Of a stretch of 64,000 nt of DNA, positions 2,881 through 59,828 are shown one piece after another (the stretch's first letter is position 1; every line of letters begins with the position of its first letter). The notes under the pieces were generated by a model. The model saw only the letters and a program-made list of their open reading frames with translations, was not told where the DNA came from and searched no databases. The translations under genes were made by a program, and so were the position numbers. Source of the stretch: an uncultured Candidatus Saccharibacteria bacterium (GTDB taxonomy: Bacteria > Patescibacteriota > Minisyncoccia > Phycocordibacterales > JAKAEA01); NCBI GenBank assembly GCA_964532205.1, contig CAZHGQ010000004.1, positions 3,118-67,117 of the forward strand, given 5' to 3'.

Positions 2881-2881
2881 A

Positions 2882-5335: not shown

Positions 5336-5336
5336 A

Positions 5337-7976: not shown

Positions 7977-7978
7977 AT

Positions 7979-9519: not shown

Positions 9520-9558
9520 ATTATTAATTATACAAATATTTTTTTAATAACCAAGGAA

Positions 9559-10533: not shown

Positions 10534-10550
10534 TTTTATCCCCGATCAAA

Positions 10551-12403: not shown

Positions 12404-12525
12404 AACATCTATTAGGTTTATAAACTAACCCCCTTATGATACACCATTGGTAGCTAAGCTCAACTGTCAGATTTTCCCTACCCTAGCGTCTCTATGCTTG
12501 CAGGTTTATACATTAAATAAATAAC

Positions 12526-12672
12526 ATGGATCAAGATAAACAACACAAAAACGATGATCAAAAAGATGAAGATATGATGAATGATGAGGATAAAGAAGAT
12601 AAGGATAAAAAAGATGATGAAGACGAAGATGAGGATGACACCGATTCTTCAGATGATTCGTCTGGAATGTAA
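12526..12672 (+). CDS. Small hyper-acidic protein (48 aa, D/E/K-rich; not in ORF track)
   Basis: Translation MDQDKQHKNDDQKDEDMMNDEDKEDKDKKDDEDEDEDDTDSSDDSSGM. Followed directly by a terminator hairpin. Confidence 0.35.
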   Translation: MDQDKQHKNDDQKDEDMMNDEDKEDKDKKDDEDEDEDDTDSSDDSSGM

Positions 12673-18666: not shown

Positions 18667-18724
18667 TAGTAACACTATTATAATCCGAAAACGCTTAATT
18701 GACGATCCGAAGTGTAACAAAAGG

Positions 18725-19159
18725 CTAACCCTGAAACTCCACCTCAAACGGATACATTCCCATTCCGCAGGTTCCTTGGAGTGTGCCGAGTTTACCTTCA
18801 CCAATGTCAACATCAGTTGATCCTGTTTGCGGGAGTGATTTGCTTATGCCAAGACTTGGAATACGGACTGAGGATGAGCAGTCGAAAGTTCCTTTTGTGT
18901 TGAATCGAATAATAGTTGGAATACCTGCCTTAGCAATACTCTTTCGTGGTTGGTAGCCACCCCTCGCAGTTATTTCAATAATCTGCTTTCCATCAACAAT
19001 GCTGACATTGTTGGCATTTGCTACTTGTCCAGTGTCACCACTGCTTTTTGTGAGCATAAAAGCTCCCCCGATGAGGAGTATCGCTACCATAATTGAGATG
19101 ATAGTTGCTTTCATAATTGGAATTATACTAGAAGTTAAAGACTGGCGGAATAACCCCAA
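18725..19159 (-). CDS. Small exported metal-binding-like protein (CSSS...TCGMGMY), cupredoxin-like?
   Basis: N-terminal TM/signal. Cys/Met-rich C-terminal motif. Lies in the copper operon. Confidence 0.35.
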   Translation of the reverse strand: MGLFRQSLTSSIIPIMKATIISIMVAILLIGGAFMLTKSSGDTGQVANANNVSIVDGKQIIEITARGGYQPRKSIAKAGIPTIIRFNTKGTFDCSSSVRIPSLGISKSLPQTGSTDVDIGEGKLGTLQGTCGMGMYPFEVEFQG

Positions 19160-28154: not shown

Positions 28155-28414
28155 TCACTGCGCGCGACTCGATGCTTACTCTGCCCTCGGTAGGAATCGA
28201 ACAATTGGTAAAGGACAACGCCGCTCCACGGGTTCCTCACACCCCTCCAAGGGGGTGGAGGCCCACTACCTTCAAACCAGCGCTCTGTTGAGCGCTCATT
28301 CGTTCGTTGTGTTGAATTTGCCACCCCCGACTACCCGCCTCACGGCCCCTCACGGGGCTCACGCGGGTCACCCGGCTCACGCACCCGCACGCCGCTCAAC
28401 CACACGGGGTGGAG
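28147..28414 (+). repeat. 268-bp perfect inverted repeat, left copy (partner at 59561..59828)
   Basis: Compared base by base with the reverse complement of 59561..59828; identical over 268 bp. Confidence 0.85.
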
Positions 28415-31245: not shown

Positions 31246-33669
31246 ATGTTGGATCGAAAATTCCGGATGCACGCTTTTCTCTCGCTGGCGGCGTTCTTAA
31301 GTAGCGCCAGCCTCGCCGACACCATCACCAACGACGGCACACTCACCGATCCCGTAACCAACACCGGCAGCAATGCGTTTCTAAACAACGGAACGATTCT
31401 CGCGCCAGTTCTCAATCAAGATGAAGCGACTTTCGAGAATCGCGTCACCGGCGTGGTTGGCTACGTTGAAAACACTTCCGCTGCGTATTTCAACAATCAA
31501 GGGCTCGTTAACTCCGTATTCGTCAATCGCGATTTCGCCACGCTTTTTAACACCGGGACAATCAACCAGCTTGAAAACTACTCCCTTGGATTCGTCAACA
31601 GCCAGAGGCAGATTACGCGATCAGTTTTCAACTACGGGCTTGGATCTTTAGGAATCGGCTCCTTTGCTACGGTCGGCGAGCATGTTTTTAACTACAGCTT
31701 TGGCAGCGTCAAGAACACCGGCAGGATCTACGGTCATGCATTCAATGATGGTTTGGGACGATTCCACAATGCCGGGATCGTCATGCAGAATGCGTACAAT
31801 GGCGGTCAGGGCACATTCGAGAACGCAGCAACAATCTCCGGCAACACCTATAACAGTGGGGGCGGATTCTTTCGAAATGATTCGGTCATTCATGGCTCAG
31901 TCTACAACTACAACTCCAGCGCCTTCGACAATTCCAACTCCGTATCCGCGATCAACGGCGACGTACACAACTATGATCAAGCTACGTTCAGGCACGCCAC
32001 CAAAATCAAAGGCAGCGTCTACAACGACGCCAGCTTTGCTGTCGTCCAGCCTACACCTTCCCAACCAGCTTTAATCAATGGAAACTTCTTCCAGAGTTCC
32101 AGTGGAAATCTCGTCCTCTCAATCAACTCGCAAAATGCATCAAGCACCAAGTTAGCAATTGCTGGCACTGCTAATTTTGCCGGGACCCTTACCGTCACGC
32201 ACGGTGATCTTGATCCTGCCATTGGGAGTCGATACCCACTCCTCTCGTATAAGGCCATCAGGGGGCATTTCGACACCCTTAACGGCTCCATCATCGACGA
32301 AAGCAAGTTCTTTGGTCTGGATTACCAAGACGCCAAACTCGACTTAATTACGCTCGCAACGCCCAAAAGACTTAATCGCGACGGCACATTCGGACATTTG
32401 ACCGACTCCACAAATCTCGGCAGCGGCCTGATTCTGATCACTCACGGACGTGGTAGCAATGTCGATGTCTGGGCAACGGGAATGGCGACTGCGATTCAAC
32501 AACAGATTTCCTCTCCGGACAATTGGGAGACCGCAACCTTTGACTGGAGAGATCTTGCCGCCCCACTTGACGCTCCGGAAGTCGCCCGCCGCGCTAATCA
32601 GATCGGTGATAGTCTGGCAAACTGGATGCGCGAGGAAGGACTGCACTTTAGTAACATTCACGGGTTAGCACACAGCGCGGGCGTGTGGCTCATCAATCGT
32701 TTCGGGGAAGAAGCGCCGCAAGCCGTTGGAGCGACTTTTGTTCACGATACCTTCTTCGATGCCTTTGTACCCTCAGACGGAGTTAGTGATTCTGGCCGAG
32801 AAATTTCGAATTTGGGGCAATTCGCCTCAATCGCTGAACAGTTTGTGGACCACCGTAAGAGCCTAGCATACGACACAAACGCGACGCTCGAATACGCGTC
32901 GAATATTGATGTGACCGGCGCCGACCCTGACTTCATCCATGTTCTCCACCGCACAGCTATGGTTCATGGTTGGCCTTATCGCTGGTACCAAGAGTCGGTC
33001 CTGAATCCATCGAATCCAAAATACGAGGGCGTCGGCTTTTTCCGTTCCGCGGAATTCCTTGGCTACAACCCCTCCATAGATAAAGCCGACATCGGCCAGC
33101 GAAAGTACCTTCCTTCATCGGTCTTCATCCGATCAGATTCTACTACCCCCGTTTCGCTGGATCTTATTCATATAATCGTTAGCGACCCCAACAAGGTGAA
33201 CGTCACTTCTGGCGTGCTCGAACTTAAGGCCACCAGCAATGCGCCGAATACATTGCCGCAGTTCGGGGAACCTCCTGCCGATGACGACGTGCCAACTGGT
33301 GATCCGACGCTCGCGACCTTGATCGCAACTCTCGACCAACCCGTAAACTCGTTGGTGTGCGATTTCAGCTTCTCGGGTGCGGGAGGAGGCTTGTATTCAA
33401 TCTACTTCAACGGCCACTTCGTCGCTCAGTACGACCAGCGATATATTGGCAACGACGTTGCTTCCACTGGACTACTGTTTCTTGGTCAGGAATATGAGCC
33501 AGGAACCTACACAATTCTGTTTCGCCTTGATCCGTACGACGGACTCGATTCATCTGTCAGCATTTCCAACCTCCGACTTGCAGGCCCCATTCCAGAACCG
33601 CAGACATTTTTGTTCTTGGCATTGCCGATGATGATTCGCATCCGTCTCCGCCGTCCTCCCTGTGCATAA
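31246..33669 (+). CDS. Secreted repeat-containing lipase/esterase with PEP-CTERM sorting signal
   Basis: Signal peptide. N-terminal G/N-rich beta-repeats. GLAHSAGV (GxSxG) in an alpha/beta-hydrolase-like region. C-terminus GPIPEPQTFLFLALPMMIRIRLRRPP (PEP motif, TM, basic tail). Confidence 0.6.
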   Translation: MLDRKFRMHAFLSLAAFLSSASLADTITNDGTLTDPVTNTGSNAFLNNGTILAPVLNQDEATFENRVTGVVGYVENTSAAYFNNQGLVNSVFVNRDFATLFNTGTINQLENYSLGFVNSQRQITRSVFNYGLGSLGIGSFATVGEHVFNYSFGSVKNTGRIYGHAFNDGLGRFHNAGIVMQNAYNGGQGTFENAATISGNTYNSGGGFFRNDSVIHGSVYNYNSSAFDNSNSVSAINGDVHNYDQATFRHATKIKGSVYNDASFAVVQPTPSQPALINGNFFQSSSGNLVLSINSQNASSTKLAIAGTANFAGTLTVTHGDLDPAIGSRYPLLSYKAIRGHFDTLNGSIIDESKFFGLDYQDAKLDLITLATPKRLNRDGTFGHLTDSTNLGSGLILITHGRGSNVDVWATGMATAIQQQISSPDNWETATFDWRDLAAPLDAPEVARRANQIGDSLANWMREEGLHFSNIHGLAHSAGVWLINRFGEEAPQAVGATFVHDTFFDAFVPSDGVSDSGREISNLGQFASIAEQFVDHRKSLAYDTNATLEYASNIDVTGADPDFIHVLHRTAMVHGWPYRWYQESVLNPSNPKYEGVGFFRSAEFLGYNPSIDKADIGQRKYLPSSVFIRSDSTTPVSLDLIHIIVSDPNKVNVTSGVLELKATSNAPNTLPQFGEPPADDDVPTGDPTLATLIATLDQPVNSLVCDFSFSGAGGGLYSIYFNGHFVAQYDQRYIGNDVASTGLLFLGQEYEPGTYTILFRLDPYDGLDSSVSISNLRLAGPIPEPQTFLFLALPMMIRIRLRRPPCA

Positions 33670-33710: not shown

Positions 33711-34049
33711 ATGTACGTTTTTACCGCCGTTGTTCTTACCGTAAGCTCCGCTTGTCTGCTTACGTTTATTCTTATCTGGCTCACTGGCGATTTGTTCAGC
33801 TTCATATATTACGCGGCAACTCAGCATCTTGGGGGTGTTTTCGTTGCCGCGACACTATTTGGCGTTCTTATGCATTACGCCACACGTCGTTTCGTACGTC
33901 GCCGATATTTACCAACAATTCTCAGTAGCGCTGTGGCACTCGCGATCCTCTCTTTCTTTGCAGGCTGGATGCTTCTAAGCAGCCACTTTGACGATGTTCC
34001 AAGTATTACGACTACCATCGCCTACCTTCTGAATACTCATCTGCCCTAG
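33711..34049 (+). CDS. Small integral membrane protein
   Basis: Three to four hydrophobic helices. Confidence 0.4.
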   Translation: MYVFTAVVLTVSSACLLTFILIWLTGDLFSFIYYAATQHLGGVFVAATLFGVLMHYATRRFVRRRYLPTILSSAVALAILSFFAGWMLLSSHFDDVPSITTTIAYLLNTHLP

Positions 34050-34206: not shown

Positions 34207-34929
34207 ATGTCACTTCGCGTCAAACGGGCTACGCCCGACGTGATCGTTTCGCACTGGTGCAAACTGATTGAGAACTTCTCGTTCTCATCTCGAACCTTTT
34301 ACGAGAAGCTGGACCAAGCCATCAGCAAACGCCAGATTCCCAACATAAACAGCGGTCAGATCCATTGGCCGGAAGGAAGCGTTCTTTCTGCCAAGCGAAT
34401 CTATCTTCGCCTGGTACGCGAACGCCTCGTCATCGACATTTGTGCGGCACCATTTGGCACGGGCTTCTTTGTGTCATGGAGATTGGGAGAGATTCGCCTT
34501 CGTGTCAGCTTCTTCCTGCTCTTCCTGCTGCTGTGTTCCTGCTATTGGCTGTATGGAAGCATCTATGATCGATATAGCTGGGACATTTATCGTTTTCGCC
34601 ACCGATATCCGGGTGAATTCCTGGGCATCATTGTCGCAGTGGTTGCAGTGTTCTTTCTGATCTTGTTCTTCCTACGCCAGGTTGTTGCCTCCGGGCTATC
34701 CGATCTTGATGCAGTGTTATTGCGCATCCCTATCCTCGGCCCATTCTACGAACGTTTCCTGCGACCCATCACCTACTACCGCATCGACTTGATGCTCGCG
34801 TATCAGGAAGCGGTGCATCAGGCGGTGCTGGAGGTGGTCGATGAAATCACCACCACCGGTGGGATCAAACCTCTCAGTGAATTGGAGCGCCGTCCCATTC
34901 TCACCGAACTGTACAAACGCAGGCGATGA
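34207..34929 (+). CDS. Membrane protein; stop lies 6 nt before the large HerA/FtsK-like ATPase start
   Basis: Three or more TM helices. 6-nt spacing to the next gene. Confidence 0.45.
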   Translation: MSLRVKRATPDVIVSHWCKLIENFSFSSRTFYEKLDQAISKRQIPNINSGQIHWPEGSVLSAKRIYLRLVRERLVIDICAAPFGTGFFVSWRLGEIRLRVSFFLLFLLLCSCYWLYGSIYDRYSWDIYRFRHRYPGEFLGIIVAVVAVFFLILFFLRQVVASGLSDLDAVLLRIPILGPFYERFLRPITYYRIDLMLAYQEAVHQAVLEVVDEITTTGGIKPLSELERRPILTELYKRRR

Positions 34930-34935
34930 GCGGCT

Positions 34936-37900
34936 ATGTCAGCGTATCTTTCCATCGATGAGCAACTTGCCCAGGAGTTTTACGATTGGGAACTCATTGG
35001 TCGGGGCTGGCAGGTGTGGGACGACCCGGTATCGCCAGAACCGCCGTTCCGACCATTCATTCGGAAGATGCCGCAATGCAGTCGTTCTGATGATGGCAGA
35101 GATCACAGTCTTCTGAGTGGTGTTATTGCTCGGCTTGCCAGACTCTTCGCCGGTCGACCCAACCTGCCTGTGGAACCCGAACCCACTTGGACACCGCTTC
35201 GGATCATCCATGATCCGCCACCCGTGGTGGAACTTGCGCTCGTCCCGCCTGCGGATTTTGATGCTTCGCAGCAGATGATGGCTCAACTGCTTGCTTCGCT
35301 TGCGATGGCGAATCATCCAATCGCATTTGAGATTCTCGCGAGCCAGAACACGATAGTATCGCAGTTCGCCGTTGCACAGAGTGATGCATCAGCAGTACGC
35401 AGTCAGATTCAGGCCCACTTTCCCGAAGTCGCGTTGAGTCAACAGACGAACGTTTTGAAGGATCGATGGGACGCTTCAGGTGAAGCCTCGCTCATCTTTG
35501 AGATCGGTCTCTCGCAGGAGTTCATGCGCCCGCTGCCCGTCCCGCCCAAACTCACGCCTGATGTGCTGGTCAGTGTCATGGGAGCAATGGAGGAAGTGTC
35601 CACCGACGAACTAGCGCTCATGCAGATGATCTTTGAGCCCGCCCGTTATCCGTGGGCAGCGAGCATGCTGCGAGCGGTGACCTTCAATGACGGCAGCGAA
35701 TTCTTCGATGCATCGGAAAGTGTACTCGATGAGACAAAGGAAAAACTCTCCCGTCCTTTGTATGCCGCCGTCATTCGACTGGCGGTTAAGACCGCCGATG
35801 AAGCTCGCACGTTCGAAATCGCCCGTTCCTTAACCGCTTCGCTCACCGCAGGTTTTCAAGGCTATGGCAATGACCTGATAGCTTTAAGCAATGATGAGTA
35901 TGATCCAGACGATCACGAGTTTGATACCCTTCATCGCCAGTGCCGACGCAGCGGCATGATCCTCAACAGCGATGAACTGGTGAACTTTGTTCACATACCT
36001 TCTTCCGCTGTACGCACCTCGAAGTTTACCCGGCAACTCAAACGCACCAAACGCGCTCCCGCCATTGCTGCTGGCAGAGATTGTGTTTTGGGTGAGAACT
36101 TCCACGCCGAACATACCATTCCTGTGGGTGTGGCTGCGGAAGAGCGCTCCAGACACATGCACCTCATCGGTGCATCCGGCACGGGAAAGTCGCAGTTGCT
36201 TTTGAACCTCATCGTGCAGGACATGGAACATGGCAAAGGCTTGGGGCTTCTCGATCCGCACGGCGATCTCGTGGACGACGTGCTTTCTCGCGTGCCCGAA
36301 GATCGAATTGATGATGTTGTGCTGCTGGATCCATCCGATGAGACGCACACCGTTGGCATCAACATCCTTTCTGCTAGAACCGAAGTCGAGAAAACCGTCC
36401 TCGCGTCGGATCTAGTAGCTGTGTTCCAACGACTCGCGACTAGTTGGGGCGATCAGATGACTTCAGTGCTTGGGAACGCTATCCTCGCGTTTCTGGAGCG
36501 TCCGCAGGGAGGTACGCTTGCCGATCTTCGACGCTTTCTCATCGAACCCGCGTATCGCAACGAAGTGCTTTCTTCCGTCACCGACCCGGAAGTCATCTAT
36601 TACTGGAAGAAGCAATTCCCCCTCATTCGCGGCATGCCGCTTGGCTCTGTGCTCACCCGACTCGACACGTTCCTGCGTCGCAAACCGATTCGGCAGATGG
36701 TCTGCCTCAAAGAAAAAGCTTTGGATTTCGCGGATATCATGGATCGCGGCAAGATTTTCCTCGCTCGCATCCCTCAGGGTTTGGTTGGCGAAGAGAATGC
36801 TCACCTTTTGGGCAGCTTGCTGGTGTCCAAGTTCTATCAACTGGCAATGGTGCGACAGCAGAGCGCCGCATCTCACCGCCGCGATTTCTATCTTTACATC
36901 GATGAGTTCCACCATTTTGTCACGCCGTCGATGTCATCCATTCTCTCTGAAGCGCGAAAGTATCGCTTGGCATTGATTTTGGCTCATCAGGAATTGCGGC
37001 AACTGGAAAGTCGCGGTGTGGATCTTTCGAGCGCCGTTCTTTCTCATCCGTATACCCGCATCTGCTTTCGTGTCGGAGATCAGGATGCCAAGCGTTTGGC
37101 GGAAGGGTTTTCGTTCTTCACCGCGGCGGATTTGCAGAGTTTGAGCACCGGTGAAGCCATCTGCCGCATGGAACGGTCGAATTACGATTTCAATCTTCGC
37201 ACAAAGCTTCTGCCAGAATTGGAATGGCAACGGGTTGAGGAAAAAAGAAGGAGTGTCATCGAGCGGTCGCGAGACCAGTTTGCTGTTTTGCGGAGTTCGC
37301 TAGTGGATGCCACGTCACTTACGACGGAGAGCTTCACCGCGGAGGAGATTGCGGAGCCAGAGGTCGAACCAATCATTGTGGAGCCGAAACCGGAGACTCC
37401 CGCACCGGCACCACGTCCAATCGCAAAGCCGCCGAAAGTGAAGCCGCTGGCGGATGAGCCCGCGAACCTGGGACGCGGCGGACCCGAACATCAGTATCTG
37501 CAACAACTCATAAAGCAGTGGGCGCAGGGTATGGGGTATCGAGCTTCTATTGAGGCGCCGTTGCCGGAGGGCGGAAGTGTCGATATCGCCTTGGAAAAAG
37601 GCAATCACCGCATCGCCTGCGAAACCAGTGTCACCAATACGCCCGCATACGAGGTCAGCAATATCCGCAAGAGTCTGGTCGCGAAGTATCAATACGTCGC
37701 GGTTGTGACGACCGACCTCAAGCACCGCGAGAAGATCGAAGCGGCGGCGGAGCAGTCATTAACTGACGCGGAGCTGAAGCAGGTGCGATTCTTCTCCCCC
37801 GACGAACTCTTCGCGTTTGTTCAAGAGTTGGAGGTAAACGACGCGAAGCAGGAGCGGCTGGTGTGCGGATACAAAGTGAAGACCTCGGTGCGCTCCACCG

Positions 37901-37986
37901 ACGCACAAGATCAAGCGATGCGGCAGCAGGCGATTGCCCAGGTCGTCGCTCGTTCGGTGACGCGGATGCGGAAAAAGAAACAGTAG
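34936..37986 (+). CDS. Large HerA/FtsK-superfamily ATPase (DUF87-like) with Pro-rich linker and C-terminal PD-(D/E)xK-like or DNA-binding domain
   Basis: Walker A GASGTGKSQ, Walker B IDEFHHF, ARKYRLALILAHQ (HerA-type arginine-finger region). Paralogous ATPase core to 53398..54690. C-terminal GGSVDIALEKGNHRIACE. Confidence 0.6.
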   Translation: MSAYLSIDEQLAQEFYDWELIGRGWQVWDDPVSPEPPFRPFIRKMPQCSRSDDGRDHSLLSGVIARLARLFAGRPNLPVEPEPTWTPLRIIHDPPPVVELALVPPADFDASQQMMAQLLASLAMANHPIAFEILASQNTIVSQFAVAQSDASAVRSQIQAHFPEVALSQQTNVLKDRWDASGEASLIFEIGLSQEFMRPLPVPPKLTPDVLVSVMGAMEEVSTDELALMQMIFEPARYPWAASMLRAVTFNDGSEFFDASESVLDETKEKLSRPLYAAVIRLAVKTADEARTFEIARSLTASLTAGFQGYGNDLIALSNDEYDPDDHEFDTLHRQCRRSGMILNSDELVNFVHIPSSAVRTSKFTRQLKRTKRAPAIAAGRDCVLGENFHAEHTIPVGVAAEERSRHMHLIGASGTGKSQLLLNLIVQDMEHGKGLGLLDPHGDLVDDVLSRVPEDRIDDVVLLDPSDETHTVGINILSARTEVEKTVLASDLVAVFQRLATSWGDQMTSVLGNAILAFLERPQGGTLADLRRFLIEPAYRNEVLSSVTDPEVIYYWKKQFPLIRGMPLGSVLTRLDTFLRRKPIRQMVCLKEKALDFADIMDRGKIFLARIPQGLVGEENAHLLGSLLVSKFYQLAMVRQQSAASHRRDFYLYIDEFHHFVTPSMSSILSEARKYRLALILAHQELRQLESRGVDLSSAVLSHPYTRICFRVGDQDAKRLAEGFSFFTAADLQSLSTGEAICRMERSNYDFNLRTKLLPELEWQRVEEKRRSVIERSRDQFAVLRSSLVDATSLTTESFTAEEIAEPEVEPIIVEPKPETPAPAPRPIAKPPKVKPLADEPANLGRGGPEHQYLQQLIKQWAQGMGYRASIEAPLPEGGSVDIALEKGNHRIACETSVTNTPAYEVSNIRKSLVAKYQYVAVVTTDLKHREKIEAAAEQSLTDAELKQVRFFSPDELFAFVQELEVNDAKQERLVCGYKVKTSVRSTDAQDQAMRQQAIAQVVARSVTRMRKKKQ

Positions 37987-38032: not shown

Positions 38033-38257
38033 ATGATAGACTATCCGGCGATGACTCACGAGCAATTGCTGAAAGTGGTTTGCCGCCGGATGAAGCGTCT
38101 GGACATGACACCGTACCGTTTGCATCAGGAACTCAACGGTAAGGTTTCAAAGCAGACGGTCTACAACTTCATCGAGCATGGCAGGCACGTCACCACGGAG
38201 ACACTCGTGGCGATTCTTTCGGTGCTCAAGCTTTCGATCAGCGAACCGGACGAATAG
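38033..38257 (+). CDS. XRE-family HTH DNA-binding protein
   Basis: SKQTVYNFIEHGRHVTTETLVAILSVL. Confidence 0.6.
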   Translation: MIDYPAMTHEQLLKVVCRRMKRLDMTPYRLHQELNGKVSKQTVYNFIEHGRHVTTETLVAILSVLKLSISEPDE

Positions 38258-38266: not shown

Positions 38267-39850
38267 ATGATTGCACGCACGTCGTACGAGATTCACAAAC
38301 CGGTGGGCATCTGGATTCGCGTCTCGACTGAAGACCAGGCCCAGGGTGATAGTCCTGAGCATCATGAGAAGCGTGCCCGCTATTACGCCGAATCCAAAGA
38401 GTGGGACGTCAAAGAGGTGTATCACCTGGAAGGTGTGAGTGGAAAGACGCTCATGGGGCATCCCGAGACACGCCGAATGCTCGAAGACATCCGCACCGGG
38501 AAGATTCGCGGGTTGATCTTCTCCAAGCTCGCCCGTCTCGCCCGCAATACCAAGGAACTCTTGGAGTTCGCCGATATCTTCCGCGAACACAACGCGGATT
38601 TGATTTCTCTTCAAGAATCGATTGATACCTCCACACCCGCAGGCCGTCTCTTCTACACCATGATTGCAGCGATGGCGCAGTGGGAACGGGAGGAGATCGC
38701 GGATCGCGTGAAGGCATCGATTGCCATCCGAGCTAAGCTGGGCAAGCCGTTAAGCGGCAGACCGGCATTTGGATATACACTTAAGGATAAGAAGGTCGTT
38801 CCCCATCCCACCGAAGCCCCGGTTCGCAAGCTCATCTATGAATTATTTGCCGAGCATCGCCGGTACAAGACGGTGGCGAGGCTGCTCAACGAGTCCGGGT
38901 ATCGCACCCGAAGCGGTGGACTCTTCTCCCATTCCACCGTTGAACGACTCATTGACGATCCAACCGCTAAAGGCGTGTATCGCACAGCGTTCACTGAGAA
39001 GATCAAAGGCAGAAGCTGGGTAAGCCAGAAGCCGGAGAGCGAATGGACGACGATTGCGGTTGAGCCCATCGTTTCTGAGGAGTTGTGGGAACAGTGCCAC
39101 AAGTTGCAGGCAGAGCGGTACCAACCTCGCAAGCGTCCAGGCAAACGTCCGGTGCATCTGTTTGCAGGATTGGCGTACTGTGAATGCGGCAAGAAGATGT
39201 ATGTCCCGTCCAACACGCCCAAGTACGTCTGTCAGGCCTGCCGCATCAAGATTCCCATCGTGGACTTAGAGAATGTCTTTATTGAACAACTCAAAGGTTT
39301 CTTCCTATCCCCCGATCAACTTGCAACGCATGTCGAATTGGCAGATGACAACATCCGAGAAAAGCACAAGCTTCTTGAGGTGCTTCAATCGGAAGCGGAC
39401 AAGCTTCAAGCCGAGATTGACAAGACCTACCAACTCTATCTGGAAGGACAGTTATCCACCGAAGGCTTCGGCAAGTTCTACAAACCCCTGGAAGACCGGC
39501 AGAAGCAACTTGGGGAGGAGCTACCCAAGCTCCAAGCTGAGCTTGACCTGCTGCGGATTAATGGCATTTCCGCTGATCTCGTCATGACTGAAGCCAAGGA
39601 CCTCTATGCCCGCTGGAAGGATTTAGACAAAGACGAGAAGCGCCGAGTCATTGAATCTCTTACCGATCGGATCACGATCGGAAAGGAGGCGATAGACATA
39701 AGTCTTTGCTTTCGCCCCTCCTATGAAGAAATGACAAATAGGCAACGCGAGCTTGTCATGGCGTTACCTATTTGCCACCTCAAGCTAACTCATCGAATCG
39801 TCGAGAGTTGTGTAAAACCGAAGATCCCGAGCATGATACAATCGAGGTAA
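38267..39850 (+). CDS. Large serine recombinase rec3 (distinct subfamily from rec1/rec2)
   Basis: IWIRVSTEDQ catalytic Ser. Recombinase domain. CECGKKMYVPSNTPKYVCQAC zinc ribbon. Coiled coil. Confidence 0.85.
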   Translation: MIARTSYEIHKPVGIWIRVSTEDQAQGDSPEHHEKRARYYAESKEWDVKEVYHLEGVSGKTLMGHPETRRMLEDIRTGKIRGLIFSKLARLARNTKELLEFADIFREHNADLISLQESIDTSTPAGRLFYTMIAAMAQWEREEIADRVKASIAIRAKLGKPLSGRPAFGYTLKDKKVVPHPTEAPVRKLIYELFAEHRRYKTVARLLNESGYRTRSGGLFSHSTVERLIDDPTAKGVYRTAFTEKIKGRSWVSQKPESEWTTIAVEPIVSEELWEQCHKLQAERYQPRKRPGKRPVHLFAGLAYCECGKKMYVPSNTPKYVCQACRIKIPIVDLENVFIEQLKGFFLSPDQLATHVELADDNIREKHKLLEVLQSEADKLQAEIDKTYQLYLEGQLSTEGFGKFYKPLEDRQKQLGEELPKLQAELDLLRINGISADLVMTEAKDLYARWKDLDKDEKRRVIESLTDRITIGKEAIDISLCFRPSYEEMTNRQRELVMALPICHLKLTHRIVESCVKPKIPSMIQSR

Positions 39851-40738
39851 ATGACGTCTACAAGAGGTGGGGTGAATATTGAACTTCAAGTACGCGATAT
39901 CGCGCTACTTCGTGACCTTTTTGAATCTCGATTCATGGCACTCCGGCACATCGCGGGCCTACATTTTGACTCTCGGCACGAGCCAGCCCGAAAACGAGTA
40001 TCTCTACTTTGCAGTGCAGGATACATCCGGGTGAGGGCACGCCACTTTAACGAACCTGCGCTGTACTTCTTGACCGCGCGCGGCATGCGACTTCTTTCGC
40101 AATACGGCCACTTAGGATCGTATCCTCATCTGTCTCGCGCGGTCTTGCAGAAGCGACTTGAGATAAGTTCACTAACTCTCCGGCATGAGCTCGATGTGCT
40201 GGATGTCAAAACGGCATTTGTGAACGCGACAAGATCAAACGCCAAACTCCGCATCGCAACCTTCTCAACGTGGCCGAAACTGCATTCCTTTCAAATGCTT
40301 TCAAGCGACGGGTCTGAAGTCATCGTAAAGCCTGATGGGTATATCGTCGTCCAAGAACCGCGTGCCGATTGCCCGCTTGTCATCCATCGATTCTTCCTTG
40401 AAGTCGACCGAAGCACCGAATCGCTTCGGGTCATTGACACGCGATGCAACGCATACGTCGACTATTACCGCAGCGGGGGCTTCGCTGTCGCAAACGGATT
40501 GTCATTCGACGATTATAAGCGTTTCCCATTCCGCGTTCTGATCATCACCAAGAGCGAAGAACGCCTGCAAAACATCGCCGACCGGATAAGCAAGACCGCT
40601 GGATCTCAGATTTGGCTTACGACACAGCGCGATTTCATAATCGGTTCGCTTGGGCAGATTTGGCGCTTGGTGAAACACGGCCACACTAACCAGCCGAACG
40701 ATCACAAGTCGCTCTTCATCACCCGCACCAATTTTTAA
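39851..40738 (+). CDS. Replication-relaxation (Replic_Relax) family protein
   Basis: N-terminal wHTH (DIALLRDLFESRFMALRHIAGL) and FFLEVDRSTE core motif. Confidence 0.6.
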   Translation: MTSTRGGVNIELQVRDIALLRDLFESRFMALRHIAGLHFDSRHEPARKRVSLLCSAGYIRVRARHFNEPALYFLTARGMRLLSQYGHLGSYPHLSRAVLQKRLEISSLTLRHELDVLDVKTAFVNATRSNAKLRIATFSTWPKLHSFQMLSSDGSEVIVKPDGYIVVQEPRADCPLVIHRFFLEVDRSTESLRVIDTRCNAYVDYYRSGGFAVANGLSFDDYKRFPFRVLIITKSEERLQNIADRISKTAGSQIWLTTQRDFIIGSLGQIWRLVKHGHTNQPNDHKSLFITRTNF

Positions 40739-40762: not shown

Positions 40763-41092
40763 TCATCTACTGGAGTGCAGTTCCTTCAGACCTGCTCGCG
40801 CATCATCGGCCTCCTTATCCAATCCTTCTGTCTCTGCCAGGGGGATTACCCTCTGAAACATTTCGATCGCTTCGACTAAGCGTCCGAGATCTTTCATCAA
40901 GCATGCGAGGCAATAGAGAATCTGCACCCGATCGTAGGTATCTTCTTCTTGTTCAGCCTTAAGCAAAGCTTCGCGAAGTTGATTTTCTCCATCAGTGGTA
41001 CGGCCACGATCGAGTAGCAGTAGTGCTTTATTGAACATGTCACGTGCATTCATTTTATCTCCCATACATTCTAATGAAGTTGCGAGAAGCAC
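40763..41092 (-). CDS. TPR-like small protein; candidate immunity protein for the upstream Rhs toxin
   Basis: Helical TPR-like repeats. Immediately downstream of the toxin gene, overlapping it by 38 nt. Confidence 0.4.
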   Translation of the reverse strand: MLLATSLECMGDKMNARDMFNKALLLLDRGRTTDGENQLREALLKAEQEEDTYDRVQILYCLACLMKDLGRLVEAIEMFQRVIPLAETEGLDKEADDARAGLKELHSSR

Positions 41093-53397: not shown

Positions 53398-54690
53398 CTA
53401 TTGAATCCAGCGTCGCAGCTTTTCCTCGACGCAGTTCCTTCGGCTGCCGTACCGCTGGTGGGAACGCTGAACAAGCAGTCTGCTGCGTCCGCACGGCAGT
53501 TTGAGCGCGGCAAGCGTTCTCCCGCGAAATGGCTCTTGCTGCTCGCCATCGCGCATCAGTTTCGCGAGCACTCGAAAGTTCCCCAAGGACGAGAACTCTA
53601 CCGGGGCAAATGATCCGCCAAACTCACGGGAAATAGTTTGCGCATCACTCTCTCCCACTCGGAAACTCAGCATCGAGCCGACGTTACCAAACACGGCTTT
53701 GCGGATAAACTCCGGCACCTGATCCAGGTACTGATGACTCAAGGTCAAGCTGAGTCGGTACTTTCGAGCTTCGGAAAGAATCGATGAAAAACTCGTCGTT
53801 GAAAAGTTCTGAAATTCATCTATCGCCAGAAAAAAGTCCTGCCGCTTTTCTTCTGACACATTCACCCGACTCATCGCTGCGATCTCAAAGCTGGTCACGA
53901 GGATTGAACCAAGGAGATTCGCTTTATCTTCACCCAGCGCGCCTTTGCTGAGGTTCGCGATAAAGATGCGCTTGTGATCCATCATAAAACGAGGATCAAT
54001 CTTTCGTTTCACCTGTCCCAGGACGTGTCGCAGGGGTGGGGCCATGAGTAATTGACCAACCTTGTTTTGAATTGGCGCGATCGCTTCCTTCTGAAACCGC
54101 TTGTCATACCCCTCAAATTCCCGCGTCCAAAATGATCGGACGATGGGATCATTCACCTGCTTCACGACCCAACGGCGATAGTGTGGATCAACCAGCATTC
54201 GCTGGATGCCCAGGATTGATACATTCTCGCATTCGAGTAAAGCGGAGATCGCGGCAGACAAAATGTACTCAGTTCGTGGTCCCCAGGAATCCGACCAGAT
54301 CGCCTTCATGCTGCCAATCAATCCAGAAACGACACGGTGCCGCTGATTGACAGGCACAGACTGAAGCAAATTGAATCCAATTGGATATGAAAGATCGGCA
54401 GGATTGAAATAGACGACATCTTCGGTGCGGTTACGTGGAATATGATCCAGTACATCGCGAGCGAGATCGCCGTGAGGATCAACTAACCCGACGCCGCGGC
54501 CATAATAGATGTCCTGCAGAATCAGGTTTCGCAGCAGTGTGCTCTTGCCCGTGCCCGTTTTTCCCACAATGTACGTATGTTGGCGGCGATCTTCGGGAAG
54601 CACACCAAAAGGCAGCGTCCCATTCCAGACATCTCGATTGCCGATCCAGTTGATCGATTCATCATGAATGTCATTGTGCTCCTCGCTCAT
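53398..54690 (-). CDS. HerA/FtsK-superfamily ATPase (DUF87-like, 430 aa), paralog of the ATPase core of 34936..37986
   Basis: GKTGTGKSTLL, IDEFQNF, SEARKYRLSLTLSHQ. Confidence 0.65.
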   Translation of the reverse strand: MSEEHNDIHDESINWIGNRDVWNGTLPFGVLPEDRRQHTYIVGKTGTGKSTLLRNLILQDIYYGRGVGLVDPHGDLARDVLDHIPRNRTEDVVYFNPADLSYPIGFNLLQSVPVNQRHRVVSGLIGSMKAIWSDSWGPRTEYILSAAISALLECENVSILGIQRMLVDPHYRRWVVKQVNDPIVRSFWTREFEGYDKRFQKEAIAPIQNKVGQLLMAPPLRHVLGQVKRKIDPRFMMDHKRIFIANLSKGALGEDKANLLGSILVTSFEIAAMSRVNVSEEKRQDFFLAIDEFQNFSTTSFSSILSEARKYRLSLTLSHQYLDQVPEFIRKAVFGNVGSMLSFRVGESDAQTISREFGGSFAPVEFSSLGNFRVLAKLMRDGEQQEPFRGRTLAALKLPCGRSRLLVQRSHQRYGSRRNCVEEKLRRWIQ

Positions 54691-57378: not shown

Positions 57379-57612
57379 AACTGTCCTTCAATGAAAAATA
57401 TCGTCGATCGAATTCAATTGCGAGGAGGCGTAGCCCAACGAATATGTTAGCATTGCGTGCAGACGTACACAATTCATCTGCGATCATAGGTTCGTCATGA
57501 GTAATCCCCACCTCCCAATTGACAACCGCAGCCACGTCATGCTTCGCTAGAAACAGTCTCGTTCTTTCCCATTTAGCGCACGCTTCAACCTGCGTCCCAT
57601 GTCGGGTCGCTC

Positions 57613-58029
57613 TTGCTGCGCGCAGAAAGGGTGGCCATGCCACGCAAACAAAAGGTACGACGCTTTGATCCAGGGTTTCATTGTGTTTCGCAGCTAAGTT
57701 TGGAAGAAGAAGCGCGGTTTCTACACCGCGAGGTCGAGAATAGTTTAATCGCCTCTCCCGCCGAACTCGACAAGCTGCGGATTGAGCGACACACCCATTG
57801 CGAACAATCCTGGCAACACCTTTGTTGTCTTCTCGCTCACGTAGCGGAGAAGGATCGCCGAGTATTGCAGGCACTTCTCTTCCGCGACCTATGGTTTGTG
57901 GTCGAATTGTATCGCACCTACCTCAAAGCCAACGCAGAGGACGCGCCACCCATCCGTCAGCACGCGAAGCCTTCAACGGCCCTTGAATTCAGCGATTTTC
58001 TCTTTGACCTTCAACCCCGAAAGGAGTGA
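57613..58029 (+). CDS. Hypothetical protein, translationally coupled to the primase
   Basis: Stop codon at 58027-58029 with primase ATG at 58032. Preferred over the Arg-rich antisense ORF 57302..57874. Confidence 0.35.
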   Translation: MLRAERVAMPRKQKVRRFDPGFHCVSQLSLEEEARFLHREVENSLIASPAELDKLRIERHTHCEQSWQHLCCLLAHVAEKDRRVLQALLFRDLWFVVELYRTYLKANAEDAPPIRQHAKPSTALEFSDFLFDLQPRKE

Positions 58030-58031
58030 CC

Positions 58032-59138
58032 ATGAGTTGGATAGACTTTCGTAAATTGCGTGAGTCCGTGTCATTTAAGCAAGTGCTCGCCCACTACAAG
58101 ATCGAGCTACGAATCACAGGTGACAAAGCCACCGGGTATTGTCCTTTGCCCACACACAAGGGCGAGCGGCGGTCGCCGTCATTTTCTGTAGAGCTTTCGA
58201 AGCGAATATTTCAATGCTTTGGCTGCGGAGCTAAAGGCAACCTGATCGACTTCGTCTGCTACATGGAGGGTAAGAACCCTCGGAACGGTGCTGACGTGCA
58301 TCAGATCGCGATGCTTATCCACCAGACGTTTTTGGAAACCCCAGCTACTCCCCCAGTGAAAGCACCACCGCCTACCAAACCGTCTGTGCCCAAGCCGGTG
58401 TCAACTGCAACAAAGGCGTTGCCCGATCCCACCATCCCTGTTGTGATCAACGCTCCGCTCGATTTCGAGCTAAAGGAGCTTGATCCCGATCATCCGTATC
58501 TGCTTGGCCGCGGCTTCACCGCAGAGACTATCAACCATTTCGGCTTAGGTTTCTGCAACCGTGGCACCTTCAAGGGGCGCGTCGTGATCCCGCTCCATGA
58601 TCTGAAAGGACGTTTCCTTGGGTATTGCGGGAGAATCACCAGCGACAAGCTGATCTCTCCCACGTGTCCAAAGTACAAGTTCCCGCCGCCGCGAGAGCAT
58701 GAAAGAGCGATTCATGAACTTCGCAAATCGCACTTCTTGTATAATGGACATCGCATCAAATCACCGGTGCAGGACTTGATTGTCGTCGAGGGATTTCCAT
58801 CCGTGTGGTGGTTGTGGCAACATGGGCACACCAACACAGTATCGGTGATGGGTGCAGCCTGCTCTAGCGAGCAAGCGCAACTCATCATCAAACACGTCGC
58901 AGCTGATGGGCATGTCTGGGTATTTACCGACGATGACGAAGCGGGCTTACGCTGCGGCGAAAGCCTGCTGAGTCTCATCGCGCCTGAACGGTTCGTCAGA
59001 TGGTTACAACCCATCCATGGCACGCAGCCAACAGATTGCAACGCAGAACACCTCGCCGAACTTCTGCCGCTTGGAACATCGACAGATGCACCCAAAGCGA
59101 GTTCTCGCACGAGAAAACCACTTCCACGCACTGCGTGA
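58032..59138 (+). CDS. DnaG-like DNA primase (CHC2 zinc finger plus TOPRIM), plasmid/phage type
   Basis: CPLPTHKGERRSPSFSV...FQCFGCGAKGNLIDFV and LIVVEGFPSV TOPRIM. AAGGAG RBS before ATG at 58032. Confidence 0.7.
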   Translation: MSWIDFRKLRESVSFKQVLAHYKIELRITGDKATGYCPLPTHKGERRSPSFSVELSKRIFQCFGCGAKGNLIDFVCYMEGKNPRNGADVHQIAMLIHQTFLETPATPPVKAPPPTKPSVPKPVSTATKALPDPTIPVVINAPLDFELKELDPDHPYLLGRGFTAETINHFGLGFCNRGTFKGRVVIPLHDLKGRFLGYCGRITSDKLISPTCPKYKFPPPREHERAIHELRKSHFLYNGHRIKSPVQDLIVVEGFPSVWWLWQHGHTNTVSVMGAACSSEQAQLIIKHVAADGHVWVFTDDDEAGLRCGESLLSLIAPERFVRWLQPIHGTQPTDCNAEHLAELLPLGTSTDAPKASSRTRKPLPRTA

Positions 59139-59560: not shown

Positions 59561-59828
59561 CTCCACCCCGTGTGGTTGAGCGGCGTGCGGGTGCGTGAGC
59601 CGGGTGACCCGCGTGAGCCCCGTGAGGGGCCGTGAGGCGGGTAGTCGGGGGTGGCAAATTCAACACAACGAACGAATGAGCGCTCAACAGAGCGCTGGTT
59701 TGAAGGTAGTGGGCCTCCACCCCCTTGGAGGGGTGTGAGGAACCCGTGGAGCGGCGTTGTCCTTTACCAATTGTTCGATTCCTACCGAGGGCAGAGTAAG
59801 CATCGAGTCGCGCGCAGTGACTAACCCC
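59561..59828 (-). repeat. 268-bp perfect inverted repeat, right copy
   Basis: Reverse complement identical to 28147..28414. Confidence 0.85.

Follow-up and report, generated by a model that had tools for sequence, protein, structure and literature searches.

The window, that is, the whole 64,000-nucleotide stretch of DNA that was analysed, contains two neighbouring open reading frames on the forward strand. The first (34207..34929, 240 aa) encodes a membrane protein, here called the membrane partner or MEM, and the second (34936..37986, 1016 aa) encodes a long ATPase whose start lies 6 nt beyond the MEM stop. Since more than 2460 homologues were found for the long ATPase and 509 for MEM, these are real genes, and chance reading frames are ruled out. 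A first-pass annotation had described the two frames and their spacing, a proline-rich linker, a paralogue elsewhere in the window and several motifs, and each of these is present in the sequence. The motifs lie in the long ATPase at aa 412-420 (GASGTGKSQ), 655-661 (IDEFHHF), 673-685 (ARKYRLALILAHQ) and 881-896 (SVDIALEKGNHRIACE). No literature on the pair was found; it is an uncharacterised and tightly conserved pair, carried on compact integrating mobile elements of many little-studied bacterial phyla.

MEM, of about 27 kDa, is composed of a conserved soluble N-terminal domain (aa 1-95), two transmembrane (TM) segments (approximately aa 100-120 and 135-158) and a conserved soluble C-terminal domain (approximately aa 170-235). 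Unlike the flanking soluble domains, the TM helices are not conserved in sequence. The protein had been described as multi-TM; its membrane nature stands, but only two hydrophobic, TM-like segments are present. MEM has no match in Pfam, NCBIfam, PADLOC or PHROGs, and Pfam domains are absent from all 509 of its homologues. The co-conservation of the membrane gene with the ATPase gene, on which the first-pass annotation had staked its module, is borne out: a MEM homologue is co-oriented with the ATPase in 65 of the 66 informative loci and no more than 100 nt away in 58 of these, usually at an upstream offset of -4 to +23 nt. This co-conservation spans at least eight phyla, the 65 loci belonging to Acidobacteriota, Verrucomicrobiota, Planctomycetota, Bacteroidota, Gemmatimonadota, Binatia, Desulfobacterota and CPR. 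VirB3, a small (10-15 kDa) 2-TM protein whose gene lies beside an ATPase gene (PMC12857230), was considered as an identity for MEM. The two TM segments and the adjacency fit, but 240 aa (~27 kDa) is too large, and hhalign to TrwM gives a probability of 0.2%.

The long ATPase comprises four regions, with no hydrophobic (TM) segment found in any of its 1016 aa. Its P-loop motor (36130..37260, + strand; approximately aa 399-775) contains a Walker A motif at 412-419 and a Walker B motif at 654-658, the residues of which are invariant in 32 homologues. In Pfam, the motor matches TrwB_AAD_bind (48.6 bits, cutoff 20.5; E 7e-13) and TraG-D_C (23.1 bits, cutoff 22; E 7.7e-5). With hhalign, it aligns to TrwB over 255 columns, from Walker A to past Walker B (probability 94.8%, E 4.9e-8), and a sequence search of the PDB returns TrwB and DotL as the best matches, with DptH also among the matches. 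As judged from these sequence comparisons, the ATPase core is of the type IV coupling protein (T4CP; TrwB/VirD4) type. The HerA/FtsK-like core that had been proposed is not supported: DUF87 scores 19.5 bits, below its cutoff of 23.2, FtsK_SpoIIIE is not matched, and HerA reaches only E 0.06 in a PDB profile search. Assignment of the motor to VirB4 was also rejected, as the TIGR00929 score, 20.3 bits, is far below the cutoff of 643, neither Pfam VirB4 family (CagE_TrbE_VirB, AAA_10) is matched, and hhalign to TrwK aligns the P-loop only, with a probability of 12%.

The N-terminal domain (34936..36129, + strand; aa 1-398) had been considered unknown. Nevertheless, it has a Pfam name in homologues, DUF8128 (PF26449), and its best match among solved structures is the N-terminal domain (NTD) of VirB4. 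In a Foldseek search of the PDB with an AF2 model (pLDDT 83, pTM 0.80), TrwK/VirB4 of R388 accounted for each of the top 13 matches (E 8e-5 to 2.5e-3, probability 1.0), a moderate similarity (TMq 0.39-0.43) to what is effectively one independent target protein. Sequence comparison lends this likeness no support, as hhalign against TrwK aligned the P-loop only. Uncharacterised proteins of the Bacillus phages Slash, G and JL give a better Foldseek match (E 8e-16, TMq 0.57).

The motor is followed by a variable, proline-rich linker (37261..37461, + strand; about aa 776-842, or 800-845 with narrower limits), which has the lowest conservation (0.22) and the highest gap fraction in a 120-sequence alignment, and by a C-terminal domain (37462..37986, + strand) with a predicted PD-(D/E)xK fold at aa 843 to ~950, then a beta-hairpin and a basic helical tail. 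The domain is found in the long-ATPase family only. Its nuclease-like character, another point on which the earlier annotation had rested its case, is recovered at the level of the predicted fold: the AF2 model (pLDDT 87, core 96-98) has an alpha-beta-beta-beta-alpha-beta-alpha topology, as expected for this superfamily with its alpha-beta-beta-beta-alpha-beta core, and its top Foldseek matches (R.BspD6I, Bax1, PaqCI, AF1548, EcoT38I, R2 RLE, Can2 and Hjc) are nearly all PD-(D/E)xK nucleases (E about 1e-3, probabilities of 0.93-1.0). REase-ARP is weakly matched by 3 of 28 members. As for the D...E.K-like motif that had been proposed, its letters are present, but within one strand and its hairpin they do not make the canonical geometry. 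D883 in beta2 is invariant. The sequence at the beta3 position is C895-E896-x-S/T and lacks a Lys; 4 of 28 members have L, Q or M in place of E896. The invariant residues are H852, Q856, E873, D883, C895, E906 and K912, among which E873, E906 and K912 might form a relocated catalytic site. The domain is not a MOB_C relaxase: hhalign against the Replic_Relax protein of the window gives a probability of 0.2%, and none of the 28 members matches PF13814.

Downstream of the ATPase gene, all on the + strand, lie a small HTH protein (38033..38257), a large serine recombinase with Pfam Resolvase and Recombinase domains (38267..39850) and Replic_Relax (39851..40738). The small protein matches HTH_3 below the cutoff (E 1.3e-3) and has no homologue in related loci, and HTH_3 is fused to the recombinase in some relatives. 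Of 64 loci, 22 have a co-oriented recombinase homologue no more than 350 nt downstream of the ATPase, and 31 have one within 2.5 kb; serine or tyrosine integrases are encoded in 42 of these loci. A truncated comM, found beyond the integrase in 11 loci, marks the element end. Replic_Relax (PF13814, Pfam 8.4e-22), the start of which abuts the recombinase stop 1.9 kb downstream of the ATPase, is a candidate MOB_C-type relaxase of the restriction-endonuclease-fold type, PF13814 being equated with MOB_C (PMC5357655, PMC12857230). Its homologues adjoin the module in the closest relative, L090, which has a 6.3-kb core, and in six other loci; a relaxase homologue within 10 kb of the module was detected in 6 of 83 reference loci, in addition to L090 and the window. 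In the remaining loci, the element may run past the flanks, or its relaxase may have diverged too far to be recognised.

Two further genes of the window recur with the pair. The paralogue (53398..54690, - strand) is a short T4CP-like ATPase of 430 aa that consists of the motor only, matches TrwB_AAD_bind and shares 35% identity with the core of the long ATPase across 406 aa (E 1.5e-74). Of 61 loci, 21 have an orthologue (42-58% identity); in L020, L039, L041, L046, L050, L059 and L071 its gene comes immediately before that of MEM. The DnaG-type primase (58026..59138, + strand; Pfam Zn_ribbon_DnaG, DNAG_N and Toprim) belongs to the element backbone and accompanies both Replic_Relax and the short ATPase in L012, L017, L023, L032 and L083; it is also present in L031 and L042. 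The recurrent backbone comprises the short T4CP-like ATPase, the MOB_C relaxase, the primase, ArdC and RadC. In L023, L032 and L083 whole elements measure about 14 kb, and L042 shares the backbone, with the short ATPase and relaxase not detected in the stretch examined. The proposal of a membrane protein and a DNA-translocase-type ATPase on an integrative element with Replic_Relax, a primase and serine recombinases holds.

The more specific suggestion, single-protein dsDNA conjugation of the actinomycete TraB type, finds no particular support. The core is not FtsK-type, the ATPase relatives are almost all in diderm phyla, and the recurrent genes include a MOB_C relaxase and another T4CP-like ATPase, which points to relaxase-based processing. 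As for the CTCACG iterons that had been linked to the module, CTCACG is not enriched in the window as a whole (29 occurrences against 29.9 expected). It forms two arrays of 9-bp period (28339-28381 and 59594-59636), at distances of 6 kb and 21.6 kb from the ATPase gene, and no conserved short-period repeat array was found near the module in 84 loci.

Relatives also occur outside the compact elements. On a B. subtilis plasmid with a separate VirB4-class ATPase, a Tcp-type conjugation operon has a homologue in the place of TcpA, the coupling protein; the similarity of this homologue extends to the N-domain (family HMM E 1.4e-40). Rather than transferring DNA between cells, the pair could be an intracellular DNA-processing motor, as the distant Bacillus phage relatives might be; alongside the primase and the nicking protein Replic_Relax, it would support replication, resolution, segregation or excision. 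The PHROG family phrog_5156, of unknown function, matches aa 264-745 of the long ATPase (E 1.7e-62), and homologues occur in 50 Bacillus phage records, such as PBC1_039, in an early region near DNA polymerase. The closer fold match of the N-domain to phage proteins than to VirB4, the match of Replic_Relax to a PHROG annotated 'replication initiation by nicking' and the primase in the gene set are in line with such a role. Nevertheless, an obligate 2-TM partner is hard to reconcile with a purely cytoplasmic replication function, and ArdC and RadC, which are typical of transferred elements, are present in the neighbourhood. In addition, the homologue on the Bacillus plasmid is part of a conjugation operon, and the phage homologues are only ~21% identical and likewise of unknown function. 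We consider an intracellular motor rather improbable.

The pair could also be defence cargo against phages or plasmids. By analogy with HerA-nuclease, DndFGH/SspFGH and MADS systems, MEM would sense or localise, the ATPase would translocate on invading DNA and the PD-(D/E)xK domain would degrade it. PADLOC models for mad8 (1.7e-16), HerA (2.5e-4) and DndH (3.6e-4) match the ATPase, DptH is among its PDB sequence matches, and the C-domain has the predicted nuclease fold. Other genes of the island in the window encode Pycsar and, beside the short paralogue, an OLD/Gabija-like AAA_15 ATPase, and the pair in L005 is flanked by a type I R-M system on one side and an AAA_15 protein on the other. However, detection of MADS needs MAD6, MAD7 and MAD8 together, within 10 genes (10.1101/2023.03.30.534895), whereas among the window ORFs scanned there were only mad8-like matches, generic to the P-loop, in the two ATPases and a weak mad3 match among many AAA_15 matches. 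MADS membership was therefore rejected. Neither MEM nor Replic_Relax has a PADLOC match, and the canonical ExK catalytic motif is degenerate. Furthermore, the pair is fixed directly upstream of the integrase, co-oriented with it, at the element end, and it is found in ~14-kb elements in which most of the other genes are backbone (relaxase, primase, ArdC and short ATPase), which is unlike the behaviour of variable cargo. A defence role is unlikely, if not negligibly so.

The reading that we favour, at about even confidence, is that the pair serves as the membrane-docked DNA-transfer (coupling) motor in compact integrative elements, a widespread family whose members are probably mobilizable. The 2-TM MEM would anchor the TM-less ATPase to the inner membrane through the VirB4-NTD-like N-domain, in parallel with VirB3-VirB4 and with TraI-TraJ of pIP501, and the T4CP-type P-loop domain, whose Walker motifs are intact in sequence, would hexamerise and pump DNA. 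The C-domain and its basic tail (an HTH_17 in one subfamily) would recognise, and possibly nick or cut, the element DNA, going by the modelled fold. Gene linkage suggests that the element would be excised by the co-transcribed serine integrase and its DNA then processed by the MOB_C relaxase, where present; the long ATPase and the short T4CP-like paralogue would jointly pass it to a mating channel. Pfam recognised no genes for a mating pore (VirB6, B8, B9, B10, pilin; VirB/Tra/Trb) in the window, and none were seen in the compact elements that were mapped. Given this and the diderm hosts, a co-resident conjugative element most probably provides the channel, in which case the present element would be an integrative mobilizable element (IME).

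In favour of a transfer motor, we count the T4CP-type core, the VirB4 NTD as the best solved-structure match of the N-domain, the TM-less ATPase with a 2-TM partner, the integrase downstream, the recurrent backbone, the homologue in the B. subtilis TcpA slot and the precedents of IME class 8 and pIP501. Counted against it are the lack of mating-pore genes, a relaxase near few loci, the moderate similarity to the VirB4 NTD, the fusion of a nuclease-fold domain to a T4CP, for which we know of no precedent, the combination of ATPase, nuclease and membrane protein, which is a typical defence layout, the PADLOC matches, the defence neighbours in the window and L005, and the distant homologues near replication genes in Bacillus phage genomes.

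The missing pore could instead mean that the element is self-sufficient. As a new mating-pore class, a hybrid VirB4/VirD4 ATPase, MEM and the short ATPase, with a polytopic 800-aa protein in some elements, would export DNA without a canonical T4SS. To our knowledge, canonical conjugation is poorly documented in the phyla that carry this very widespread ATPase family. The VirB4-like NTD, the VirB3-like gene position and the two ATPases are consistent with such an apparatus. Directly upstream of MEM in L032 and L042 there are, moreover, proteins of 781-807 aa with ~6 hydrophobic peaks (5-6 TM) in the N-terminal 200 residues, which resemble the 'extended VirB6' p49 of pLS20 (PMC8557374). Nevertheless, this polytopic protein has no Pfam match and is not conserved across the family, nothing was seen that could span the outer membrane, and the motor has no sequence-level tie to VirB4. 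We regard a minimal conjugation apparatus as improbable.

The coupling motor that we favour shares features with several known systems. HerA-nuclease systems, DndH/SspH and Mad8 of MADS have the same broad combination of an FtsK-HerA-T4CP pump and a nuclease, as reflected in the PADLOC matches, but DUF87 is below its cutoff here, their partner genes are absent beside the pair and the pair has a fixed backbone position by the integrase. Streptomyces TraB and Clostridium TcpA are ATPases of the hexameric-pump type from integrative or conjugative elements, and a C-terminal module of TraB recognises DNA, binding the 8-bp repeats of a clt locus. The slot of TcpA is the one filled by a homologue of the long ATPase in the B. 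subtilis operon. By contrast with TraB and TcpA, the window ATPase has no FtsK_SpoIIIE match, no conserved locus of 8-bp repeats (clt-like) was found, the hosts are diderms and the gene set includes a relaxase. In the VirB4 (TrwK)/VirB3 (TrwM) pair, the TrwK NTD is the best solved match to the predicted N-domain fold, and virB3 of R388 lies 2 nt upstream of virB4, much as the likewise 2-TM MEM is encoded immediately upstream of the ATPase. However, MEM, at 27 kDa, exceeds VirB3 (10-15 kDa), has large conserved soluble domains and lacks sequence similarity to TrwM, and other VirB genes are absent near the pair.

T4CPs (VirD4/TrwB/TraD/TraG; Pfam TrwB_AAD_bind, T4SS-DNA_transf and TraG-D_C) resemble the long ATPase in the P-loop motor and, in those loci where a relaxase was detected, in gene linkage to a relaxase and an integrase, an arrangement known from IMEs and ICEs. 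T4CPs have an N-terminal TM anchor, whereas in the long ATPase anchoring has apparently been given to a separate 2-TM protein. The long ATPase also differs in its 400-aa VirB4-NTD-like N-domain, its C-terminal PD-(D/E)xK-fold domain and the lack of a cognate T4SS nearby; we know of no precedent for a nuclease-fold domain fused to a T4CP. Two parallels in layout are from Firmicutes, with shorter coupling proteins that, unlike the long ATPase, lack DUF8128 and nuclease-fold domains. In pIP501, the 2-TM TraI has been proposed to anchor the TM-less T4CP TraJ (PMC12857230), so that anchor and motor are split over two proteins, as is proposed here for MEM and the ATPase. Streptococcal IME class 8 combines a VirD4 coupling protein, a MobC (PF13814) relaxase and a serine integrase (PMC5357655), a compact set that is also that of the present module.

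The first-pass annotation described two adjacent genes, and both open reading frames, together with all the motifs quoted for them, were found in the window. The first (34207-34929, +) encodes MEM, a membrane protein of 240 aa, and the second, 6 nt after it (34936-37986, +), encodes the long ATPase of 1016 aa. In the latter, the Walker A motif GASGTGKSQ lies at aa 412-420, the Walker B motif IDEFHHF at aa 655-661, and two further motifs at aa 673-685 (ARKYRLALILAHQ) and aa 881-896 (SVDIALEKGNHRIACE). Across an alignment of 32 homologues the P-loop and the DE residues are invariant. Conservation is lowest in the Pro-rich linker (about aa 800-845). Sequence searches recovered more than 2460 homologues of the long ATPase, mostly full-length, of about 1000-1070 aa and with 45-50% identity, as well as 509 homologues of MEM. 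Both are real genes that are widely conserved. Database entries for the long ATPase call it either hypothetical or a type IV secretion system DNA-binding domain-containing protein and nothing more specific, and those for MEM give hypothetical alone. Literature searches turned up no description of the ATPase architecture or of the pair, which is uncharacterised, whether its role is in transfer or in defence.

The motor of the long ATPase (aa 401-740) belongs with the type IV coupling protein (T4CP) families of Pfam, as it matches TrwB_AAD_bind with 48.6 bits (cutoff 20.5) and TraG-D_C with 23.1 bits (cutoff 22). The HerA/FtsK identity proposed for it at first was rejected, since DUF87/HerA falls under its cutoff and FtsK_SpoIIIE gives no match while the T4CP profiles pass. 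The best solved relatives of the family profile are TrwB and DotL, followed by DptH and HerA. When compared by hhalign, TrwB of R388 aligns with the motor over 255 columns, from Walker A to beyond Walker B (94.8% probability); for TrwK/VirB4 of the same system, the P-loop alone aligns (12% probability). No TM segment is present in the long ATPase. Its N-domain (aa 1-398) had been regarded as unknown, but in homologues it carries Pfam PF26449 (DUF8128), a name that appears in no paper found by literature search. An AlphaFold2 model of this domain, built from an alignment of 24 sequences, is confident (pLDDT 83, pTM 0.80), and each of its 13 top matches in the PDB is a TrwK/VirB4 chain from the R388 T4SS (350-375 columns aligned; probability 1.0; E 8e-5 to 2.5e-3; TMq 0.39-0.43), after which come unrelated ferredoxin-like folds. 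The modelled resemblance to the VirB4 NTD is a lead that comes from one independent target protein with a moderate TM-score. Uncharacterised proteins of Bacillus phages (Slash, G gp156, JL) match the N-domain more strongly, with E down to 8e-16 and TMq up to 0.57. In general terms, the long ATPase is a variant within the known T4CP/VirB4-class conjugation ATPases.

In MEM, two TM helices of unconserved sequence lie between two soluble domains that are conserved, one N-terminal (aa 1-95) and one C-terminal (aa 170-235). It has no match in Pfam, NCBIfam, PADLOC, PHROGs or the PDB, and its assignment by sequence to VirB3/TrwM was rejected, as similarity is absent. The context of the pair was followed in a non-redundant set of 83 loci, drawn from metagenomes as well as reference genomes and covering Acidobacteriota, Verrucomicrobiota, Planctomycetota, Bacteroidota, Gemmatimonadota, Binatia, Desulfarculus, a CPR bacterium and others. 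Culturable carriers are Lacibacter luteus TTM-7 (L050), Mucilaginibacter sp. OK098 (L047), M. pankratovii ZT4R22 (L056) and Mesoflavibacter zeaxanthinifaciens DSM 18436 (L058). Where the ATPase is intact and there is room upstream, a MEM homologue on the same strand is found at 65 of 66 loci, no more than 100 nt away in 58 of them. Co-conservation of the membrane gene, named beforehand as a check, is thus decisively borne out. The gaps between the two genes are mostly of -4 to +23 nt, which suggests that they are translationally coupled.

Homologues covering at least 80% of the long ATPase were sought on plasmids and phages, and none was found. Nevertheless, a 65-kb Bacillus subtilis plasmid (L088, CP120602.1) encodes a 913-aa protein (8830-11571) that is a true homologue, including the N-domain (family HMM E 1.4e-40). 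Its gene lies just upstream of TcpC-, TcpD- and TcpE-like genes, which is the position of the TcpA coupling protein in pCW3-type operons, and the plasmid also encodes a separate VirB4-class (AAA_10) ATPase that spans the start of the record. A reading of this match as the pLS20 T4CP was rejected, as the plasmid system is different and of the Tcp type. Distant homologues (about 21% identity) lie near replication genes in some 50 Bacillus phage records and belong to a PHROG annotated as of unknown function. The phages include G, with two adjacent copies (gp155 and gp156), Slash, JL and PBC1 (L092, 5344-7551). All of these plasmid and phage homologues are uncharacterised and have the DUF8128-plus-motor architecture without the C-domain. 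The phage neighbourhoods would fit a motor for replication or DNA processing inside the cell; however, this seems quite improbable given the membrane partner at 65 of 66 loci and the homologue within a conjugation operon.

The C-domain (aa 843-1016) had been described as nuclease-like, and both its model and Foldseek agree with this. The model (pLDDT 87, core 96-98) has an alpha-beta-beta-beta-alpha-beta-alpha topology, and almost all its matches are PD-(D/E)xK nucleases, with E of only about 1e-3, but consistently so: R.BspD6I small subunit, Bax1, PaqCI, AF1548, EcoT38I, R2 RLE, Can2, Hjc and RecU. Invariant residues are H852, Q856, E873, D883, C895, E906 and K912. The specific D...E.K assignment is unsupported: the canonical beta3 position of the (D/E)xK motif reads E896-x-S/T, and 4 of 28 members have L, Q or M in place of E896. 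With consistent structural matches and a non-canonical beta3 motif, the modelled PD-(D/E)xK fold is supported and nuclease catalysis is putative. An exhaustive profile search located the domain in 2700 cluster representatives, at the extreme C-terminus every time. Stand-alone or otherwise fused copies were rejected because the short matches are merely co-linear truncated gene calls; the domain is thus specific to the long-ATPase family. In one subfamily, an HTH_17 (AlpA/excisionase-type) domain takes the place of the terminal beta-hairpin and basic helix, and this replacement argues that the C-terminal region contacts DNA. Members of this subfamily, in which HTH_17 follows the nuclease-fold core, include P0038, P0059, P0084 and P0099. 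PF13814 (Replic_Relax), the MOB_C relaxase family, has a restriction-endonuclease fold (PMC3424549, PMC5357655, PMC12857230). An identity of the C-domain as a MOB_C relaxase domain is without sequence support, and no relationship was detectable between it and the MOB_C relaxase of PD-(D/E)xK fold encoded in the window.

The neighbours of the pair are those of an integrative element. Of 64 loci, 22 have a large serine recombinase in the same orientation no more than 350 nt downstream of the ATPase, a count that rises to 31 when the distance is extended to 2.5 kb, and 42 contain an integrase of the serine or tyrosine type. In 11 loci, a truncated comM/Mg-chelatase gene in opposite orientation lies beyond the recombinase, which places the pair right at the end of an element that has integrated into comM. 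The short T4CP-like paralogue (390-510 aa) was detected at 21 of 61 loci, at least seven of which have it immediately before MEM, and other repeated neighbours are a Replic_Relax protein, a DnaG-type primase, ArdC and RadC. A whole Verrucomicrobia element (L023, L032, L083) measures about 14 kb and runs in the order short ATPase, ArdC, Replic_Relax, primase, a few small ORFs, one large variable protein, MEM, long ATPase, recombinase and comM fragment. L042 has the same backbone, with the short ATPase and relaxase undetected within the stretch covered. L090, which is the closest relative (69% identity), packs the genes for Replic_Relax, the short ATPase, MEM and the long ATPase into 6.3 kb. In the window, the same gene set extends across 25 kb: MEM and the long ATPase occupy 34.2-38.0 kb, the serine recombinase and Replic_Relax 38.3-40.7 kb, and further on come the short ATPase (53.4 kb) and the primase (58.0 kb). 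The short ATPase (53398-54690, -) is indeed a paralogue of the long one, as had been noted (35% identity over 406 aa, E 1.5e-74).

Taken together, these features lead us to favour, with evenly balanced confidence, a pair that acts as the membrane-docked DNA-translocation and coupling motor of compact integrative elements that form a widespread family. This reading draws on the T4CP-type motor with intact NTP-binding motifs, the TM-less ATPase with its near-invariant adjacent 2-TM partner, the nuclease-fold C-domain, the backbone position beside an integrase, and the linkage to a MOB_C relaxase, a second T4CP-like ATPase, a primase and ArdC. MEM would anchor the long ATPase through its VirB4-like N-domain; the ATPase would form a hexamer and pump DNA, and the C-domain may recognise, and perhaps nick, the DNA of the element. 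Neither the window nor the compact elements yielded a recognisable mating-pore gene; as the hosts are moreover diderm, export would proceed through a helper T4SS. The earlier analogy with TraB-type dsDNA translocases is unsupported by the T4CP core, the lack of an FtsK_SpoIIIE match and the failure to find clt-like repeat arrays near the module in relatives. Binding to CTCACG iterons is likewise unsupported, and this sequence is not enriched in the window overall.

Two Verrucomicrobia elements encode, directly upstream of MEM, proteins of 781-807 aa (L032 6809-9232, L042 6864-9209) that are 46% identical to each other and have 5-6 N-terminal TM segments, a large soluble domain and no Pfam match. 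They are possible VirB6-like channel candidates. A self-sufficient minimal transfer machine could include such a protein, reminiscent of extended VirB6, although the protein is not conserved and nothing would span the outer membrane, which makes this very unlikely. A related proposal, which we regard as fairly improbable, is that the pair and the short paralogue form the core of an unrecognised minimal DNA-transfer machine of environmental diderm phyla. Here, a hybrid ATPase with a VirB4 NTD and a VirD4 motor would work with a dedicated 2-TM partner, and the restriction-endonuclease-fold domain would serve as a nickase or relaxase belonging to the element itself in the many elements whose relaxase gene is undetectable, giving a T4CP-relaxase fusion and possibly a new class of mating pore.

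In the window, cargo genes (RHS toxin, MarR, oxygenase, AAA_15 ATPase and Pycsar) are scattered among those of the backbone within a GC-rich island (GC 0.52 versus 0.41-0.45) whose end adjoins rplS. The Pycsar anti-phage system (28589-30205) is complete, consisting of the PycTIR cNMP-binding/TIR effector (E 1e-110) and, after it, the cyclase PycC (E 3e-102). An 822-aa AAA_15/AAA_21 ATPase (54910-57378, -) with OLD/Gabija/PARIS(AriA)/Septu-like PADLOC matches directly adjoins the short T4CP-like paralogue and is overlapped by an ORF at 57302-57874 (-); a similar AAA_15 protein follows the recombinase in the related locus L005. Between the relaxase and the remaining backbone lie, as cargo, an RHS-repeat protein of 2569 aa (41055-48764, -), a candidate polymorphic toxin, and at the 3′ end of its gene a small TPR protein (40763-41092, -). 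Upstream of MEM there are an 807-aa protein with a C-terminal PEP-CTERM-like sorting signal (PEPQTFLFLALP...RRP; 31246-33669, +) and, just before MEM, a 112-aa membrane protein (33711-34049, +). The former was rejected as a conserved upstream component (0 homologues across related loci) and the latter has a homologue in no related locus; thus, both are probably cargo. Elsewhere, an apparent four-protein operon (942, 817, 879 and 207 aa; 52-8602, -) with zero Pfam matches occupies the lower-GC part, and the gene for a C-5 cytosine DNA methylase (411 aa) overlaps that for a 657-aa HATPase_c_3 (MORC/GHKL-type) protein (15636-18813, -), possibly a restriction-modification-like or defence pair.

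With defence genes close by, PADLOC matches to mad8, HerA and DndH, and a layout of ATPase, nuclease and membrane protein, the pair could itself be defence cargo. We consider this unlikely, as it behaves like backbone and not like variable cargo, and the MADS partners are absent; membership in MADS was rejected for lack of the partner genes (10.1101/2023.03.30.534895). The transfer-or-defence framing of the first-pass annotation stands, as do the nuclease-like C-domain and the co-conserved membrane gene. Its HerA/FtsK label, unknown N-domain, TraB-type analogy, specific D...E.K motif and iteron binding are corrected or lack support.

The island that holds the module is flanked by the arms of a perfect 268-nt inverted repeat (28147-28414 and 59561-59828), 31,146 nt apart, each with an array of four or five copies of a 9-bp repeat (CTCACGSSG); these arrays span 28339-28381 and 59594-59636. 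The left arm begins 8 nt ahead of the stop of a serine recombinase gene (26562-28154). This repeat could mark an invertible segment, the terminal repeats of the element, a product of recombination between tandem elements or an artefact of MAG assembly. A second inverted repeat of 97 nt (99%; 59824-59920 and 61433-61529) abuts the right arm, and its right copy, shortly ahead of the host rplS, lies within the 3′ part of a third serine recombinase gene (60008-61657). The array of 9-bp repeats recurs, as TCCACGAAT in about three copies, at both ends (109-137 and 12503-12531) of a 12.5-kb Ignavibacteria contig, L082, which encodes a truncated member of the long-ATPase family; there it may be the end overlap of a circular element.

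To our knowledge, the mechanisms by which genes move horizontally are poorly understood for Acidobacteriota, Verrucomicrobiota, Planctomycetota and many Bacteroidota. In these groups, compact integrative elements of the class that the long-ATPase family marks are very common, and their signature protein joins features of both key T4SS ATPases with a nuclease fold and has an unannotated membrane partner alongside. If the pair drives transfer, it would be a marker for finding such elements and a defined two-gene experimental target, and its natural split/hybrid VirB4/VirD4 architecture would bear on the evolution of conjugation ATPases. If it serves defence instead, it would represent a new, widespread defence system.

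Known systems share parts of this arrangement. The NTD of VirB4 binds both the membrane and VirB3, whose gene adjoins virB4 (PMC12857230); in R388 the two genes are 2 nt apart. Precedents that fit the anatomy of MEM and the long ATPase are class 8 of the streptococcal IMEs, in which a VirD4 coupling protein, a MobC/PF13814 relaxase and a serine integrase make up one compact module (PMC5357655), and pIP501, where the 2-TM protein TraI has been proposed as the anchor of the TM-less T4CP TraJ (PMC12857230).
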